Origin: Candidatus Woesearchaeota archaeon
GTDB taxonomy: Archaea > Nanobdellota > Nanobdellia > Woesearchaeales > JAGLGH01
DNA length: 64,000 bases
NCBI GenBank assembly: GCA_030670545.1
Contig: DAOVBM010000001.1
Coordinates: 17,932 to 81,931 of the forward strand
Reading direction: 5' to 3'
Positions 46,638-51,760 of this stretch are shown in pieces. The translations under genes and the position numbers were made by a program. The notes below the pieces were generated by a model. That model made no database searches and was not told where the DNA came from. It saw only the letters and a list, made by a program, of their open reading frames with translations. Numbering within the stretch: position 1 is the first letter of the stretch; each line of letters opens with the position of its first letter.

Positions 46638-47837
46638 TTAAATCACAAAATACAATATGACTGGCAGTATCAGGCATCCCATGCAGTGATTCTTTCCAAC
46701 ACCAAGCTGGCCTGCAAAAAGTCCTGCTGAAGTTGATGTAAGAAGTATAAGCAGGCCTATGAATCCGTCAAAATAGAACACAAGCAGCGAGATGAACAGA
46801 AGTATTGATATTACAAGTGTATTGTAATTGACTTTTGTTATCATTGCAGAGAAAAGTTTTGAGAAATGGACTGCAAGCCATACTGCTGCGCAGCCTGCAA
46901 TCAGCGCAGAAGTGAAGAGCAGAATCAGATCATTCAATGATATTGCGCTGGCTATCTTGCTTATCACGACAACTGCTCCATTTCTCGCCTTTTCAAGAGC
47001 GTATAAAGTAATTAAGCTGAGAGCCATATTGACTGTGTTGATACCGCCGACAAGAATCAGGAACCCCTTATCTCCTATGTTTTTCAGGAATTGTGTTGCT
47101 ACTATCGCTGCCTGTGAGCTTCCAAAACCTGGCAGGAATGATGCCATGAATCCGACACTTGCTGCTCCAAGTGATGCTTTTGCGATGTTTTTCTTTTCTA
47201 TCTCTAATCTTTTTTCCTTCTGCACTGGTATCTTGTTCTTTCCAAGCAGGCTTGTTATCAATATGCTGAAGCCGAACAAGCCGGAAAGGAGAGGAAAAAG
47301 CGGATTTTCAAGATTTGGCAGATTCAATACAATCAGTCCAATGACACCACTCATCATAAAGATAATAAAATTCCATTTCCTTTTTTTATCCTTCATAATC
47401 ATGAATGCCATTATTCCTATCAGGATGTAGCCTATATAATCCCTGATTATCGGATAGATATATCTGACAAGAAGGAGTAGTGAAGGAGCTGCAAGAATGC
47501 AGATAATCAATGACAAGATGCTTCCGGTTATTGTGAGCAGGATAGCATGATGGCCATAGCCTTTGAGCAGCATCCTGTGGCCAGGGAGTGCTGCTAACGC
47601 CATTGCTTCATCAGGAGCTCCAATGTAGATGCCTGGTATAGAATCAAGGAATGTATGTGTGATTGCCATTGATATGATGAATATAGCAATGATTATTGGC
47701 GGTACATAACTCAGAAGATATACTGATAATGTCAGGACTATCAGGCTTATGAGGTTGATATGGATGCCTGGGATAAGGCCTGTTATGACACCGAATGAGA
47801 TTCCTAAGAGGATTGCGAAGATAATTTGAGTGAACAT
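46638..47837 (-). CDS. TctA/DUF112-family membrane permease.
   Basis: Polytopic; GLIPGIH and PGxxxG-type motifs. Confidence 0.55.
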   Translation of the reverse strand: MFTQIIFAILLGISFGVITGLIPGIHINLISLIVLTLSVYLLSYVPPIIIAIFIISMAITHTFLDSIPGIYIGAPDEAMALAALPGHRMLLKGYGHHAILLTITGSILSLIICILAAPSLLLLVRYIYPIIRDYIGYILIGIMAFMIMKDKKRKWNFIIFMMSGVIGLIVLNLPNLENPLFPLLSGLFGFSILITSLLGKNKIPVQKEKRLEIEKKNIAKASLGAASVGFMASFLPGFGSSQAAIVATQFLKNIGDKGFLILVGGINTVNMALSLITLYALEKARNGAVVVISKIASAISLNDLILLFTSALIAGCAAVWLAVHFSKLFSAMITKVNYNTLVISILLFISLLVFYFDGFIGLLILLTSTSAGLFAGQLGVGKNHCMGCLILPVILYFVI

Positions 47838-47880
47838 GTATTATGTGATTTGGATTTTGTTTATATGTTTGTGGTGGAGA
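47781..47880. repeat. Left copy of a ~100-bp direct repeat covering the TctA 5' coding end and promoter.
   Basis: About 80% identical to 51662-51760, including an exact 27-mer gagtgaacatgtattatgtgatttgga. Confidence 0.75.
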
Positions 47881-48130
47881 AAACCGGAGATATTGCGGAC
47901 AGCATCAATTCTTTTCATAAACTCAATGTTGTTGTATTTCACATCAAAATTACCTTTTTTTGATGCTTGTTCTTGGTAGCCAAACCAGATAAAACTTTTA
48001 CGGTTATTGGCTGTCAAGGGTATTAGTTATTTATAATCTATTTATATAATTTTATGTTTAAGATGGATTCCCAGATTTATTTTTATTGGGTTTTATTGTT
48101 ATTGGGATGTGATTTAAACTTGCTATTTCT

Positions 48131-48973
48131 TTATCCCCTTGGGAATCTAGGCATTCTTCTATTTGGCAAAAACCATTTATACAAATAACGATAAGAATAT
48201 GTTATTTGTCTTTCTATAACACTATCTGTAAATCTATTTCCTGTAGGGATATGAACATCTTGATTTCTCCAGTTTCTTGCAATTTGTAAGCCAGCAATAA
48301 CATAATATTCGAAATATTTCTTTTCAACTCTTTGTGGCTTAATTTTGGGCAGAATATCAATAAAATTTCCTAATGTATGTGTATCAGTTTGAATATATCT
48401 TCTTTTAAATGTTCCTAATCTTATTGGAGTTTTAGGATTACGTAACTGATCTTTTCTATTTTGGTCATAATCAAATTTATTGATTAAATAACCCTTTTTT
48501 AAAAAAATCCCTTTTAGCAAAAATTCAAATCCCAATCCAAGATACACTCGATTCAGATAGTTTCTATCAAAAAAACTCACAAAATCAAAAGGACCATGAT
48601 ATAACCCGAAAAAATACTCTGCTTTTTCAACAAATTGAATCCAATCATTCTTTTTATATTTATAATATACTTGTTTTGTTTTTTTATTAAACTTTACCAA
48701 ATCAAATGTAGCATTTGGGATCTCATCTTTTATTTTTCTTCTAATTTTATTATCTATCTTGCTTCGTCGCATATTTATAAGACGCAGGATCTCATAATAA
48801 TAGTATAATGATGTTGTATTCTCAATAGAATTAATATAACCATTAACAATTGATCTATGATTTGCTGGCTTAGCACACTCTATATGCAAAACATCTATAA
48901 GCTGTCTAATTTCTATAGGAGTAAGTATATTTCTTATTTTTTTACAAATCATAATACCCATAGTTATGCTCAA
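48131..48973 (-). CDS. Hypothetical protein (280 aa) in the AT-rich insert.
   Basis: Continuous ORF. It has an RNWRNQDVH segment, which is only a weak HEPN-like Rx4H match. Confidence 0.45.
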   Translation of the reverse strand: MSITMGIMICKKIRNILTPIEIRQLIDVLHIECAKPANHRSIVNGYINSIENTTSLYYYYEILRLINMRRSKIDNKIRRKIKDEIPNATFDLVKFNKKTKQVYYKYKKNDWIQFVEKAEYFFGLYHGPFDFVSFFDRNYLNRVYLGLGFEFLLKGIFLKKGYLINKFDYDQNRKDQLRNPKTPIRLGTFKRRYIQTDTHTLGNFIDILPKIKPQRVEKKYFEYYVIAGLQIARNWRNQDVHIPTGNRFTDSVIERQITYSYRYLYKWFLPNRRMPRFPRG

Positions 48974-49070
48974 TTATATAAATTAATTGTAAATTATTCA
49001 AAAAACTTATGCTATCACGCTTAATAATCACATTTAAATATTTTTAGATAATCTCATCTATTCAAAAACT

Positions 49071-49937
49071 TCATTTAATTAATTCTTTAATCTCCTTATA
49101 GCTTTTTTCATATTTTTCCTTTCTTTTTCGAGATTTCTCATTTATATAAGCACAAATGTAATAAGAATGGATGATTGTTCCAATCTTAAGATTCTTCAAA
49201 AAATTATCATGAACATAAATTTTATTATTTGAATTTTTATACAATCCTGATTCAAAAAAAGCTAATATTAGATATGGAGGAATAATAAAATAATCTGGGA
49301 TAGATAATATAAAACATTGTTTTAATTCATCATATTTTTCCAGTTGTTTATTAGAGATGTTATCATTTATCCATTTTAATCCGCGATTAATATCAAATAT
49401 AGCCTCCAAAATTGGCTTTAAAATTAAATCTTTATAATAAGATGATCGCTCAAACTCTTCCAGAGTTATAATTGAATTGTTATTAGAAATAATTTCTTTT
49501 AATAATTTACAAATGGTCTCCATGTCTCTTTTTACTCTATAAAAATTCATTTCCTTACCTTTTTTTGTAAGAATTGCATATCCTAATATTTTATTATTTT
49601 CTCCTCTTTCCCTACTTGTTAAATCATTTAATTTATCAAAATTTTCTTTTGATAGGTTATTTAGTTTTAAAAAAGTGTTTTTATCGATTGTTTCTTCCTT
49701 GATAAATATTCTTAATTTCTCTTTCTCACAGAAATTAAATTCTTGACATAATCTTTTGTCTAAATAAGTATCACTATGAGAATCAATAACTTTTTTAGTA
49801 TTTATATCTCTCATTGCATGATATACTGGAACAAAACCACCCACTAATCTTTCAGGTATTTTATCCGCTTTATAATCTCGGATTTTATCATAATTTAAGA
49901 GGGTTTTGAGTATCTTCCAATCTTTTTTTGACGTCAT
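49071..49937 (-). CDS. Hypothetical protein (288 aa) in the AT-rich insert.
   Basis: Continuous ORF. Confidence 0.45.
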   Translation of the reverse strand: MTSKKDWKILKTLLNYDKIRDYKADKIPERLVGGFVPVYHAMRDINTKKVIDSHSDTYLDKRLCQEFNFCEKEKLRIFIKEETIDKNTFLKLNNLSKENFDKLNDLTSRERGENNKILGYAILTKKGKEMNFYRVKRDMETICKLLKEIISNNNSIITLEEFERSSYYKDLILKPILEAIFDINRGLKWINDNISNKQLEKYDELKQCFILSIPDYFIIPPYLILAFFESGLYKNSNNKIYVHDNFLKNLKIGTIIHSYYICAYINEKSRKRKEKYEKSYKEIKELIK

Positions 49938-50273
49938 TGTTCTTCTTTAAATTTTAATTTAAAGTAATATTTAAACTTTCCGAGATTGTGAGGTTACTAT
50001 GTCTTGATATGACAAATAAATCCCAAAATTTTGCCATTCAATTTTTATATAGATTTTTGTTAAATCTTACTATGATTCAACGGAATTTAATAAACAACGG
50101 ATTCAGCCTTATGGTTTGATTGATAAGATATTGGATCCTGAAAAATGAGTAAGGGAATCATTATCTAATAATTTAAAGCAATCAGGAGGTGAAAAAAATG
50201 AATAATGATGAAGAATTAAAAGATAAACTTGAAAAAATGCCAAACATTGTTTTTGTTACATTAAACCTTGATT

Positions 50274-50939: not shown

Positions 50940-51026
50940 CTATTACTTCAATCCTTTTTATAGATTGGGGTATCTTCCACAATATAGTGGAATACTAATA
51001 TATAAATCTTTCCACAATATAGTGGT

Positions 51027-51245
51027 ATGCCTAAGAGAACACATCAAGAAATTAGAAAAACGATATTAAAAGCACTAATTGATGGAAAAGAATGTACTTA
51101 TGGATCTTTGGAGAGAAAAGTAAACACAAATTGGCAAACCATAAGAAAACATTGCAAAGATTTACTGCTCTTTGATGCAGTTACTATTTCTAATGATAAA
51201 ATCAAAATAACAAAAGAAGGCAGAGAACTTCTGAAAAAGCTTTAA
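51027..51245 (+). CDS. Small winged-helix DNA-binding protein.
   Basis: 72 aa; helix-turn-helix-like segment ECTYGSLERKVNTNWQTIRKHCKDL. Confidence 0.45.
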   Translation: MPKRTHQEIRKTILKALIDGKECTYGSLERKVNTNWQTIRKHCKDLLLFDAVTISNDKIKITKEGRELLKKL

Positions 51246-51304
51246 TTTTGGAATAATATATTTAAAGAAGTAAACATTATATAAAAATATAGGAGGTACA
51301 TTAA

Positions 51305-51478
51305 AATGAATGATGATGAATTATTGAACGAAACAGCAAGAGCATTGTATAATTCAAATAAACAATCTGGGCACAGGAAGATTCCTTCTTTAAAGGGTAT
51401 TTCTGAGAAGGAATCAATCAAAGAGATTAAAAAAATGCTGATAAAACTAAAGGAAAGGTGGGAAAAGAAAGATAGTTA
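51305..51478 (+). CDS. Small ORF (57 aa) with a strong Shine-Dalgarno (aggaggt), absent from the ORF track.
   Basis: Its N-terminus MNDDELL and its upstream region are paralogous to 50183-50222. Confidence 0.35.
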
Positions 51479-51624
51479 AGTTTTTCTAAAGTCTTAATTA
51501 ATCCAGAAATGTCTTAGTTTTGTAATTTCTACTTGGTTTGTTCTTCAATTATCTCTAAGTCTGTGGGATTGTCAAGACTCCAATGCTTTGCCTTTTTATT
51601 GTACTGCACTACAACAGAATGAGT

Positions 51625-51701
51625 TTATGACCGTGAACTGAAGTAATATTTTCCAGTTATGACACCGAATGATATGCCTATGATGATGGCAAGGATTATC
51701 T
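51625..51701 (-). pseudogene. Truncated N-terminal remnant of a TctA-like gene (MFTQIILAIIIGISFGVITGKYYFSSRS*).
   Basis: 80% nucleotide identity to the TctA 5' end at 47781-47840. Confidence 0.65.
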
Positions 51702-51760
51702 GAGTGAACATGTATTATGTGATTTGGAGTGGGTTTATATGTTTGTGGGGGTTAGATTCG
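51662..51760. repeat. Right copy of the ~100-bp direct repeat.
   Basis: See 47781-47880. Confidence 0.75.

Follow-up and report, generated by a model that had tools for sequence, protein, structure and literature searches.

How did a 64-kb stretch of archaeal DNA (the window hereafter, from contig DAOVBM010000001.1 of assembly GCA_030670545.1, its host read as a Woesearchaeota-type DPANN archaeon) come to carry the start of one protein-coding gene twice, with foreign-looking DNA in between? The original prediction was that an element had inserted into the 5' end of a TctA-family permease gene and supplied it with a replacement 5' end, and this proved largely right. In our best explanation, which we hold to be probable, a foreign circle joined the TctA start by one crossover and brought a new 5' end with it; as part of that same account, ~47798-51654 of the window (3.86 kb, 26% GC) is probably horizontally acquired DNA lying inside the TctA 5' end. 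The features concerned are these:

46638..47837, minus strand: TctA-family permease gene, 399 aa, intact, the target gene (PF01970, E 1.7e-52)
47779..47900, minus strand: repeat copy A, attR-like, beside TctA, comprising TctA codons 1-20 with a leaderless-type start, preceded by a TATA box and the operator-promoter module (47859-47900)
47781..47797, minus strand: 17-nt block shared by A and B without a mismatch (twin at 51655-51671), the putative crossover interval
51653..51774, minus strand: repeat copy B, attL-like, distal, the stranded original promoter module and TctA stub
51625..51711, minus strand: TctA stub of 20 TctA-like codons, a tail of 8 unrelated ones, then a stop; the native TctA start forms its 5' part

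A repeat finder returned 47779-47888 and 51653-51762 as a two-copy direct repeat of 110 nt, 83% identical and spaced by 3874 nt, which confirms the repeat of about 100 bp that had been proposed. By blastn the copies align over 99 nt at 85.9% identity; the pairwise alignment holds the expected exact 27-mer, GAGTGAACATGTATTATGTGATTTGGA, plus an exact 17-mer and 16-mer, and similarity extends more weakly (71%) out to 47897 and 51771. The pair is the sole gene-end duplication within the 64-kb window, and simple arithmetic puts the chance expectation for an exact 27-mer pair at ~1e-7 per 64 kb. The repeat had been described as a promoter and some 19 TctA codons; it is in fact the entire native TctA operator-promoter and 20 codons. 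Copy B translates as MFTQIILAIIIGISFGVITG and does end in a stop as claimed, but only after 8 further, unrelated codons (KYYFSSRS). Between the repeats GC falls to 26.4% (whole window: 36.0%), and this segment is the most deviant 3.8-kb block in the window by trinucleotide content, in line with the AT-richness first reported.

Because the window comes from a metagenome-assembled genome and the locus has strain variants, one could imagine that the assembler fused two versions of the TctA upstream region into one contig. We give this almost no credence. A Logan assembly contig (L012, from SRR26080965; a separate assembly, of reads that may also lie behind the window's contig) is 100% identical to 47287-55189 and gives the same 7.9-kb arrangement across both repeats; the longest exact repeat, 27 nt, is shorter than usual assembly k-mers, so that the copies would not collapse, and the stub runs seamlessly into unique insert sequence.

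The strain variant just mentioned, contig L034 from a sister strain, has a TctA gene 94% identical in nucleotides to that of the window and is missing the insert; its gene order is DinD, 53 nt, then TctA, with neither the insert nor the A/B promoter there. Copy A differs from L034 at 9 positions in nt 1-42, compared with 5.2% over the other 1099 aligned nt (P = 2.5e-4), every other 42-nt window of the gene having at most 6 mismatches, and over those first 42 nt copy B agrees with L034 at 38 and copy A at 33. In the L034 5' end, nt 13-42 fit copy B (the stub), and from nt 57 on the fit is to copy A: at sites where the copies differ, L034 has the B base at six (nt 15-39) and the A base at nt 57 and 60. 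This B-then-A hybrid, which comprises about 9 informative sites in a single 4.2-kb metagenome contig, is the pattern expected of a pre-integration (attB-like) site, and since both junctions change parent in one interval it fits a single reciprocal exchange.

The same comparison bears on another way of making direct repeats, namely in situ, either by tandem duplication of the TctA promoter and 5' end or by a transposition-like insertion that left a long target-site duplication, the non-functional copy having diverged since. Insertion at a staggered cut does likewise leave direct repeats around an insert. However, the repeats are 17% apart and the gene only 5-6% from its insert-free sister, which leaves too little time, and relative to the sister strain the aberrant copy is the functional A, not the stub. 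Codon by codon, the aligned copies show 6 synonymous and 3 conservative codon changes across the 20 shared codons, unlike decay, which suggests that both evolved as working N-termini rather than as a gene and its decaying duplicate. No terminal inverted repeats and no transposase were found, and we consider such a duplication most improbable.

A single crossover would account for these observations as follows. The insert would have arrived as a circular molecule bearing its own diverged copy of the module, derived from a related lineage, and would have undergone one reciprocal (Campbell-type) crossover inside the ~120-bp module formed by the native TctA operator-promoter and first 20 codons. 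The exchange would have landed in the common 17-nt block, codons 14-19 (nt +41 to +57 of TctA by coordinates, +40 to +56 by the mismatch table). One outcome would be an intact TctA driven by an imported promoter with about 13 imported codons at its start (copy A); the other would be the original promoter and start left 3.87 kb upstream as a 28-codon stub pointing into the insert (copy B). The TctA promoter and first ~13-19 codons would then be element-derived, as comparison with other lineages also hints: the copy A promoter and 5' end has the exact stretch GCTGTCCGCA in common with the TctA locus of contig L038, and an exact 16-mer with that of L039.

The DNA between the repeats carries the following:

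47898..48130, no strand: insert end, non-coding, 28% GC, no homology to any related sequence compared
48131..48961, minus strand: p280, HEPN-domain protein of 276-280 aa, its family found on DPANN metagenome contigs and nowhere else
49071..49937, minus strand: p288, 288 aa, a strict ORFan matching only itself
50274..50492, minus strand: small membrane protein, 72 aa (ORF and gene call), with just weak holin- or SieB-like matches
50556..50939, minus strand: predicted lipoprotein, 124-127 aa, signal peptide then Cys, no family match
50975..51025, no strand: candidate wHTH operator, two copies of TTCCACAATATAGTGG (50975-50990 and 51010-51025), read from sequence
51027..51245, plus strand: winged-helix regulator, 72 aa (PF14947 HTH_45, E 2.2e-6; Sso10a-family, E 1.4e-5)
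51306..51479, plus strand: 57-aa ORF, its start similar to that of a micro-ORF at 50198-50392

The winged-helix regulator was correctly called from the sequence, and the TTCCACAATATAGTGG pair, which brackets a TATA-like box where the lipoprotein and wHTH genes diverge, is a candidate operator for it. The two largest proteins had been listed as having no recognised homologs. This stands for p288, which found nothing but itself in libraries of 5.8 billion and 1.84 billion proteins, had no Pfam, PHROG, PADLOC or NCBIfam match and no phage or plasmid match, and gave a structure model of pLDDT 35 with no usable fold. It does not stand for p280, which has the HEPN fold and is a putative RNase. In comparison with HEPN toxins and Abi proteins (HepT of the type VII HepT/MNT toxin-antitoxin, UPF0332, sacsin HEPN), p280 shows no sequence-level match to any HEPN family in Pfam, PADLOC or NCBIfam, bears an extra N-terminal helical region of ~125 residues, has no conserved MNT partner and occurs on DPANN-type contigs only. 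The cargo may be accessory or defence-like. Its gene set was not found together in any other sequence searched, so the insert is not a recognisable recurrent element.

Could one of these proteins be a novel recombinase, as was first suggested, making the insert a present or past autonomous integrative element? p280 being a HEPN protein, the role would fall to p288 as a new, unrecognisable family: it is the only sizeable insert protein with no assigned fold, and has no homologue among 5.8 billion proteins. That same solitude weighs against it, as a mobile-element recombinase should have relatives; nothing similar lies in analogous inserts of three related contigs (L006, L002 and L030), and positive evidence amounts to zero. 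We regard this as very unlikely.

The insert does not stand alone. The defence or accessory island that had been proposed is borne out by defence-family matches of its MNT and DinD genes, but it spans 7.3 kb rather than 3.8 kb, lying between p108 and TctA and comprising DinD, radical-SAM, an MNT pair and the 3.86-kb cassette, which is its newest layer. Its older parts, and the promoter modules in and around it, are:

51786-52370, minus strand: wHTH-MNT nucleotidyltransferase, older layer, MntA-like (PF18765, PF01909; PDC-M05A, E 3.5e-20)
52364-52969, minus strand: MNT partner, 181-201 aa, older layer, upstream of and overlapping the MNT gene
53117..53158, minus strand: promoter module C
53177..54007, minus strand: radical-SAM/SPASM protein, 276 aa (PF04055, PF13186), 94% identical in amino acids in L034
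54129..54944, minus strand: DinD/Bro-N protein, 271 aa, candidate defence gene (NF008573, E 1.6e-121; PDC-S13, E 3.6e-117; PF02498)
55011..55052, minus strand: promoter module D, closely like the L038 TctA promoter
55097..55423, minus strand: p108, conserved upstream neighbour of TctA and far island edge, from relatives' gene order
46528..46568, minus strand: promoter module E, upstream of a 44-aa zinc-ribbon ORF

The radical-SAM and DinD-like genes were identified correctly. The adjoining HEPN/MNT pair is upheld for the MNT member; its partner has no Pfam or other database family match, and its HEPN identity is putative. In contigs of other Woesearchaeota, relatives more distant than L034 and the reference for the 7.3-kb figure, p108 abuts TctA within a few nucleotides (L005, L007, L027, L030) or lies just upstream of it (L001, L026). 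An empty site with TctA next to the HEPN/MNT genes had been anticipated; in L034 it is DinD that lies directly upstream of TctA, and the radical-SAM gene is upstream of DinD, on the opposite side from the window arrangement. L034 is thus an imperfect empty site, with the MNT pair and the B promoter missing too, and these differences beyond the insert imply more than one rearrangement between the two strains. Separately, the zinc-ribbon ORF (46347-46481) belongs to a cassette, 46298-46644, that is missing as a whole in L034.

A generic promoter motif, the refutation that had been allowed for, applies in part. The promoter/operator module occurs at five sites of the window locus (copies A and B, modules C, D and E) and directly upstream of TctA in L038, L035-37, L039, L006 and L008/L032; the only pair sharing 20 codons at 83% identity is A and B. 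Module D is probably the ancestral TctA promoter. The other breakpoints between the window and L034 fall just downstream of the module C TATA box, exactly at the upstream edge of module D, where homology to L034 begins, and 5-17 nt before the ATG; such differing positions resemble the outcome of homology-driven or illegitimate recombination more than that of a single fixed site.

Which activity, then, made the crossover? The initial observation that no integrase is recognisable held: among about 50 ORFs across the 64-kb window there was no integrase, transposase or Cas1 Pfam match. Similar integrase-less cassettes with flanking repeats of about 60-120 nt occur in L006, L002 and L030, and these likewise contain no recombinase, which argues against classical self-encoded integration. 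We lean, at somewhat less than even confidence, towards a site-specific recombinase acting in trans or since lost, the insert being a CIME-like (cis-mobilizable) non-autonomous element. Ranked second, as a serious though less favoured possibility, is homologous recombination by the host's own machinery, acting on the ~120-bp homeologous module with no site-specific enzyme: a circle excised between flanking repeats at a related strain's TctA locus would have recombined with the module, and the scattered promoter modules of the island would serve as portable homology for cassette shuffling.

In favour of the homologous route, about 370 kb of related DNA yielded four cassettes flanked by repeats, none of them with an integrase, and their repeats differ in kind (TctA 5' end in the window and L006, TctA 3' end in L002, the 3' end of an unrelated gene in L030). 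The A/B homology also spans the whole promoter, as it should if the DNA came from an orthologous locus, and window/L034 breakpoints coincide with modules C and D at differing positions inside them. It is on record that tandem elements can recombine homologously and so be excised with no integrase involved, and that in Thermococcus segments of only 104 bp can recombine (PMC8371274). Yet a stretch of 110 nt with 83% identity makes a poor substrate, and the exchange took place in the 17-mer near the inner boundary, not in the longer 27-mer. In L006, whose TctA protein is only 49% identical to that of the window, the stub repeat also stops at nt +60 and the exact block at +56; this agreement of inner boundary (+59/+60) and block end between the two lineages is not predicted by random fragment ends and points towards a fixed site.

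The insertion has parallels in known systems. The dusA-specific genomic islands and prophages of Proteobacteria (Farrugia et al. 2015, PMC4482086) also enter a protein-coding gene at its 5' end. There, as in the window, a fresh 5' end comes with the element and keeps the gene whole, the old 5' end is left as a remnant and imperfect direct repeats (attL/attR) flank the insertion. They differ in having a dedicated tyrosine integrase beside a semiconserved 21-bp att site (PMC4482086), whereas the window insert has no integrase, is only 3.9 kb long, shares a segment of about 110-120 nt that includes a complete operator-promoter, and sits in TctA of a DPANN archaeon. CIMEs and tandem accretion at att sites are described in Firmicutes (reviewed in PMC5704250); the insert resembles the former in having both repeats but no recombination genes, and the latter in lying proximal to older accessory layers at one gene start. 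CIMEs are by definition what is left of decayed ICEs or IMEs, and they are mobilised when a related integrase comes in (PMC5704250), while the window insert has no known parent element, integrase or transfer system, and any descent from an autonomous element would be conjectural. Archaeal elements integrated by tyrosine integrases, the SSV-type ('suicidal') and pTN3-type, are also chromosomal insertions bounded by direct repeats; immobilisation through integrase loss, and tandem integration followed by homologous recombination, are described for them, and the pTN3 integrase recombines identical segments of about 104 bp (PMC8371274). Their targets are tRNA genes, or else integration splits the integrase gene that they carry, in contrast to the window insert, which has no tRNA gene and no split integrase ORF at its ends and targets the start of a protein-coding gene.

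The locus therefore represents a known style of genomic-island insertion, seen here with no accompanying integration enzyme. The element itself would be of an ordinary kind, a dusA-type 5'-end replacement and CIME-like; what is new is its host and its target.

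An AT-rich block of about 3.9 kb lies between two diverged copies of the start of a TctA-family gene, and comparison with a sister strain upholds the core of the original prediction, namely that DNA was inserted at the TctA 5' end and brought a substitute 5' end with it. A repeat finder places the two-copy, 110-nt direct repeat at 47779-47888 (copy A) and 51653-51762 (copy B), with 83% identity and a spacing of 3874 nt. By blastn the copies match over 99 nt at 85.9%, and pairwise alignment gives an exact 27-mer spanning the start codon together with an exact 17-mer and 16-mer, likeness extending at 71% as far as 47897/51771. 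This is the sole gene-end duplication within the 64-kb window. Copy A comprises the upstream region and codons 1-20 of the TctA-family gene:

46638-47837, minus strand: TctA-family gene, 399 aa (PF01970, E 1.7e-52), ORF intact

The reading frame of copy B gives MFTQIILAIIIGISFGVITG and runs on for eight unrelated codons (KYYFSSRS) before its stop, so the TctA start expected there is present and the stop said to follow it directly is not. GC content between the copies is 26.4% against 36.0% for the whole window, and the insert is the most deviant 3.8-kb block of the window by trinucleotide content; the predicted repeat and the AT-rich DNA it flanks are both real. A mis-join of the contig at this locus is unlikely, because an independent Logan assembly of run SRR26080965 is 100% identical over window positions 47287-55189 and no exact repeat exceeds 27 nt, which is below the usual k-mer length of assemblers; that an assembly artefact produced the arrangement we consider highly improbable.

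The sister strain is represented by a 4.2-kb JGI contig, L034, in which TctA is 95-96% identical by protein search. Its correspondence to the window is as follows.

L034 1-658 to window 53770-53113: 3' part of the radical-SAM gene, 95%
L034 1025-1984 to window 55052-54092: DinD, 96.5%
L034 1997-3154 to window 47842-46645: TctA, 91% by blastn, 94% allowing for a 41-nt deletion
L034 3297-4162 to window 46297-45431

In L034, TctA begins 53 nt after DinD, and the contig has no AT-rich block, no MNT pair and no promoter of the A/B type. Judged from this alignment, the configuration looks like that expected for an uninserted site of the kind known for dusA-specific genomic islands (PMC4482086); L034 also differs by further rearrangements. 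The 41-nt deletion (2376-2379 region, nt ~375-415) splits its TctA into ORFs of 125 and 260 aa, and the gene may be inactivated there or the contig in error.

The strongest evidence for replacement of the gene start comes from the mismatch pattern. Copy A differs from L034 at 9 positions in nt 1-42, compared with 5.2% of the remaining 1099 positions of the alignment (binomial P = 2.5e-4); elsewhere in TctA, a stretch of 42 nt contains at most 6 mismatches between the two strains. Copy B is identical to L034 at 38 of these 42 positions. Of the sites that distinguish the two copies, L034 carries the B base at nt 15, 19, 21, 24, 28 and 39 and the A base at nt 57 and 60, nt 12 being the lone exception; past nt 60, copy B has no relation to TctA. 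Because the informative sites switch from B to A, the 5' end of L034 reads as the 5' part of B joined to the 3' part of A. A first 42 nt that is aberrant in copy A and native-like in copy B is the replaced 5' end seen in dusA-type islands, with the original start left behind as a remnant. At both junctions the switch of parent falls within 17 nt that A (47781-47797) and B (51655-51671) share exactly, near nt +40 to +56, and this is the signature of one reciprocal exchange between the chromosome and a circle carrying one diverged copy of the module.

The locus thus combines foreign composition, homeologous flanking repeats, absence from the sister strain and reciprocal hybrid junctions, and from these we infer that a circular molecule integrated Campbell-type, the TctA promoter and first ~13 codons being replaced by imported ones upon integration. 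Read across the alignment, the 20 codons shared by A and B show six synonymous and three conservative changes, and since the changes are of these kinds both copies evolved as functional N-termini. Copy A also shares an exact GCTGTCCGCA with the TctA promoter of a related contig (L038) and a 16-mer with codons 8-13 of another TctA locus (L039); because of these exact stretches the imported segment probably came from the TctA locus of a related but distinct lineage. That the repeat arose by duplication in situ seems to us most improbable.

As for the repeat itself, its upstream half forms a promoter module, in which a partly palindromic, operator-like element (CCG-N9-CGG in A, TCGGA-N5-TCCGA in D, CCGAAA-N3-TTTCGG in the related contig L006) is followed by a fixed spacer of ~10 nt and then by CATATAAA, some 20 nt ahead of a start that is probably leaderless. 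An 18-mer of the module occurs three times in the window at three or fewer mismatches, against 0.02 expected, and a small nhmmer model finds five window sites in all:

46528-46568: module E, heading a zinc-ribbon cassette
47859-47900: module A
51733-51774: module B
53117-53158: module C
55011-55052: module D, upstream of DinD

All five copies fall within this 9-kb locus, and in five further Woesearchaeota lineages TctA is likewise preceded by the module. Matches outside the training set lie directly upstream of TctA in L038 (E 1.6e-6), L035-37, L039, L006 and L008/L032, so the module is the native TctA promoter where TctA is uncoupled from its conserved upstream neighbour, p108. Module D and the TctA promoter of L038 have GACGATAAACATATAAA in common. 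Modules C and D were considered as further TctA stubs and rejected, as they hold the promoter module only and no TctA codons. The worry that the repeat might be a generic promoter motif was therefore justified in part, for its promoter half; the 60 coding nt and the 83% identity belong to A and B only. The breaks in homology between the window and L034 coincide with modules, one lying just past the C TATA box and another precisely at D's upstream boundary, and module E with its zinc-ribbon cassette (46298-46644) is absent from L034. The locus is a mosaic of promoter-headed cassettes, varying between strains that are only 5-6% diverged.

No integrase, transposase or Cas1 was matched when ~50 ORFs over the 64 kb were compared with Pfam, and the six insert proteins matched no recombinase family, as anticipated from the sequence. 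With a chance that we put a little short of even, the exchange was made by a site-specific recombinase acting in trans or since lost. In favour, the exchange used the inner-edge 17-mer and not the longer 27-mer, and in L006, from a Woesearchaeota MAG, TctA is only 49% identical, yet a stub repeat likewise ends at nt +60 and an exact 35-mer within it likewise at +56. This stub (2478-2537 / 3871-3930; the first 60 nt of TctA at 87%) lies 1.39 kb upstream of TctA, with an AAA_14/DUF4143 ATPase gene between the two. The L006 example is weaker, however, because its ATPase also adjoins ArgRS in the window (21780-23096 / 20048-21742); the ATPase may be an ancestral neighbour rather than cargo, and we no longer count L006 as a clean second example.

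Exchange by host homologous recombination is a tenable reading on the doubtful side. Four repeat-flanked cassettes were found in ~370 kb of related DNA (the window, L006, L002 and L030); none carries an integrase, and their targets differ. The other strain-level breakpoints of the locus, moreover, do not fall at one position. For archaea, both immobilisation by integrase loss and homology-type recombination on ~100-bp segments have been documented (PMC8371274).

Two of these cassettes come from other gene ends. In L002, a Nanoarchaeia MAG contig, a second copy of the final ~40 TctA codons occurs 1.47 kb downstream (11081-11201 / 12554-12669; 121 nt, 88% identical; 82-nt core, 97.6%), and between the copies lie a TrmB-like regulator and a membrane ORF of 153 aa, with GC of 29% versus 36% and no integrase; this is the 3'-end counterpart of the structure in the window. 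In L030, a 121-nt imperfect direct repeat (306-426 / 1624-1743, 87%) surrounds a 1.3-kb cassette of two genes (215 and 196 aa). One of its repeat copies is the 3' end of the cassette's own gene; the target differs, and the cassette has no integrase; the 196-aa ORF is nucleotidyltransferase-like by eye alone.

The insert carries several genes besides p280 (276-280 aa) and the ORFan p288:

insert: 72-aa winged-helix protein (HTH_45, Sso10a-like)
insert: 72-aa membrane protein, a lipoprotein and small ORFs

The motif W231-R232-N233-x-D235-x-H237 is nearly invariant in 13-14 homologues of p280 and conforms to the HEPN Rx4-6H motif, and the protein has the HEPN four-helix-bundle fold. On motif and fold we place p280 in the HEPN superfamily, with a putative RNase or toxin role. 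Exact-protein look-ups of TctA and of the 280-aa p280 ORF gave no match, and the 276-aa version from the gene caller did match. Searches with the p280 profile against PDB sequences returned noise only, as did a BFVD fold search, whose top row, a 'Tyr recombinase' (E 0.32, TM 0.14), is meaningless. On a 620-kb Woesearchaeota contig, one p280 homologue overlaps at its start with a gene, or gene fragment, for a serine recombinase (Resolvase; L013 9708-10007; L015 63-554), the sole recombinase observed near any member of the p280 family.

The ORFan p288 has no homologue in protein libraries of 5.8 billion and 1.84 billion entries, no match in four HMM libraries and none by tblastn against phages and plasmids, and its single-sequence AlphaFold model is unusable (pLDDT 35). 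A 277-aa neighbour of a p280 homologue proved unrelated to p288. That p288 is a novel recombinase of the insert we regard as very improbable. The promoter of the winged-helix gene has two flanking copies of TTCCACAATATAGTGG. Because the insert genes never accompany p280 homologues elsewhere, the insert cannot be recognised as a recurrent element; the searches revealed no parent element and did not turn up the gene set elsewhere. Its non-coding ends matched no other sequence compared, neither the p280 family nor the 27-mer turned up in scans of viral contigs, and the insert shows no excess of sigma-70-like promoters or terminators.

Set against known systems, the insert resembles dusA-type islands in its flanking direct repeats (110 nt at 83%) and differs in that such islands carry their own integrase, inside the element and next to the att site, and this one does not. 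A CIME (cis-mobilizable element) keeps attL and attR and has no integration or transfer genes. The insert fits that definition, and also CIME accretion (PMC5704250), having no recombination genes, both repeats, and older layers adjoining at the same gene end; a CIME would also derive by decay from an ICE or IME and be mobilisable by a related integrase, and for the insert such a descent is conjectural. An integron cassette was rejected because the repeat lacks an attC-like hairpin (copy A as single-stranded DNA, -4.8 kcal/mol, z = -0.08), and no IntI heads an array, the window having no integrase match. A transposon or casposon was likewise rejected: no terminal inverted repeats join the insert ends, the repeats are 110 nt at only 83%, and there is no transposase or Cas1. 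So was an SSV-type element, as the ends are non-coding or a TctA stub, with no split integrase, and there is no tRNA gene; tRNA, tmRNA and Rfam families are absent from the window. The insert adds to a recognised type of 5'-end-replacement element, in an under-studied host.

The surrounding island is larger than first thought. TctA relatives come from Woesearchaeota/Nanoarchaeia (DPANN) metagenome-assembled genomes, in keeping with the archaeal markers LSm, NOG1 and Trm1 in the window; scans of genomes and metagenomes with TctA found relatives of at most 65% identity and no empty site. A p108 homologue ends a few nt before the TctA start codon in L005, L007, L027 and L030 (in L030 the two ORFs overlap by 1 nt) and lies just upstream of TctA in L001 and L026. 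In the window the two are 7.26 kb apart, so the accessory island, whose existence was correctly predicted, is about twice the proposed size. Its order, in gene orientation, is DinD/Bro-N, radical-SAM/SPASM, wHTH-MNT with an overlapping upstream partner, copy B, the AT-rich block and copy A.

55097-55423, minus strand: p108, conserved neighbour of TctA
in the island: DinD/Bro-N gene (NF008573, E 1.6e-121; PDC-S13, E 3.6e-117)
within 51786-52969: wHTH-MNT nucleotidyltransferase (PF18765, PF01909; PDC-M05A, E 3.5e-20)

The MNT component is also MntA-like (E 1.2e-10, under the curated cut-off). Its 181-201-aa partner has an overlapping position and, by eye, a UPF0332-like 'YYA..L...L' helix, with no sequence match in Pfam, NCBIfam, PADLOC or PDB; of the predicted HEPN/MNT pair, then, the MNT half stands and the HEPN half lacks database support. 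Elsewhere the place at TctA is taken by a type I restriction-modification system (L035), an MNT and UPF0332-like pair (L002) or a HicA/HicB-like pair (L029, judged from ORF sequences alone), and across Woesearchaeota the p108/TctA junction has repeatedly received genes for toxin-antitoxin, restriction-modification and defence functions. The L029 insertion (3471-4605) puts 1.1 kb between p108 and TctA, with a 172-aa membrane ORF and the HicB/HicA-looking pair, and no flanking repeat was detected around it. Downstream of TctA, window 42296-46251 holds two Fic/DOC proteins (324 and 316 aa), small paired ORFs resembling a toxin-antitoxin pair, and 291-aa and 106-aa proteins without assigned function; given the Fic/DOC and toxin-antitoxin-like ORFs, both sides of TctA have accessory character.

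Other repeats were seen in the window. A dispersed element of ~150 nt (19848-20040, 60420-60610, 63886-63949 and 13534-13610; also L034 3170-3290, where the window has the zinc-ribbon cassette) has complementary ends (AAGGAGCACCAGCATCATCAGTCAAAAC ... GTTTTGAAGATGCTYGTGCTCCTT) and GC-rich hairpins at its centre, folds as RNA at -49.7 kcal/mol (z = -3.9) and matches no Rfam family or tRNA; it could be MITE-like or a structured RNA. Two non-coding repeat pairs lie tens of kb apart, 23392-23544 / 59679-59831 (153 nt at 92%) and 36257-36345 / 59597-59685 (89 nt at 97%). Four tandem paralogous genes (31728-37643; 311-428 aa) share 300-nt blocks at 64-84% identity, and they and their neighbours to 40707 have no Pfam match save one weak DUF6638. 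A giant ORF of 3877 aa (1324-12957) consists of 285-nt repeat units in at least 11 copies and is presumably a surface protein, since the adjoining ORF (152-1327) has Big_12/Big_13 Ig-like domains. Seven 60-nt tandem repeats (17105-17638) lie in ORF 16817-17833, a region of extreme GC and AT skew.

For the cell, TctA transcription would now start at an imported promoter of the same regulated type as the gene's own, and three conservative substitutions would fall in the first transmembrane segment of the protein. The native promoter B, stranded, would point into the insert, antisense first to the winged-helix gene and a 57-aa ORF and then sense to the lipoprotein, membrane, p288 and p280 genes, to whose expression it may contribute; its transcript would give a 28-residue hydrophobic peptide. 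It is a long shot that the TctA module and analogous gene-end repeats of ~60-120 nt, which border other integrase-less cassettes of Woesearchaeota (L006, L002 and L030), are the recombination site of an unrecognised DPANN cassette-capture system. Such a system would, with equally low probability, be a promoter-carrying analogue of integron or CIME accretion that stacks defence or toxin cassettes at one gene start; its driver, no less speculatively, might be a trans recombinase cutting near TctA nt +56 to +60, or an ORFan like p288. The hints of generality, recurrent integrase-less, repeat-flanked cassettes and the +56/+60 boundary in L006, come from few cases.

The genomes of DPANN archaea are tiny, and the routes by which accessory genes reach them are poorly understood. 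The findings leave current understanding intact, and the p280 analysis adds a DPANN-restricted family of HEPN proteins. Should the breakpoint prove fixed in a survey, recombination by a trans-acting system would be indicated for these organisms. The locus offers a nucleotide-level example of a small defence-like cassette captured at the start of a conserved transporter gene, complete with the swapped promoter and first codons and with a sister strain that keeps the pre-insertion state.
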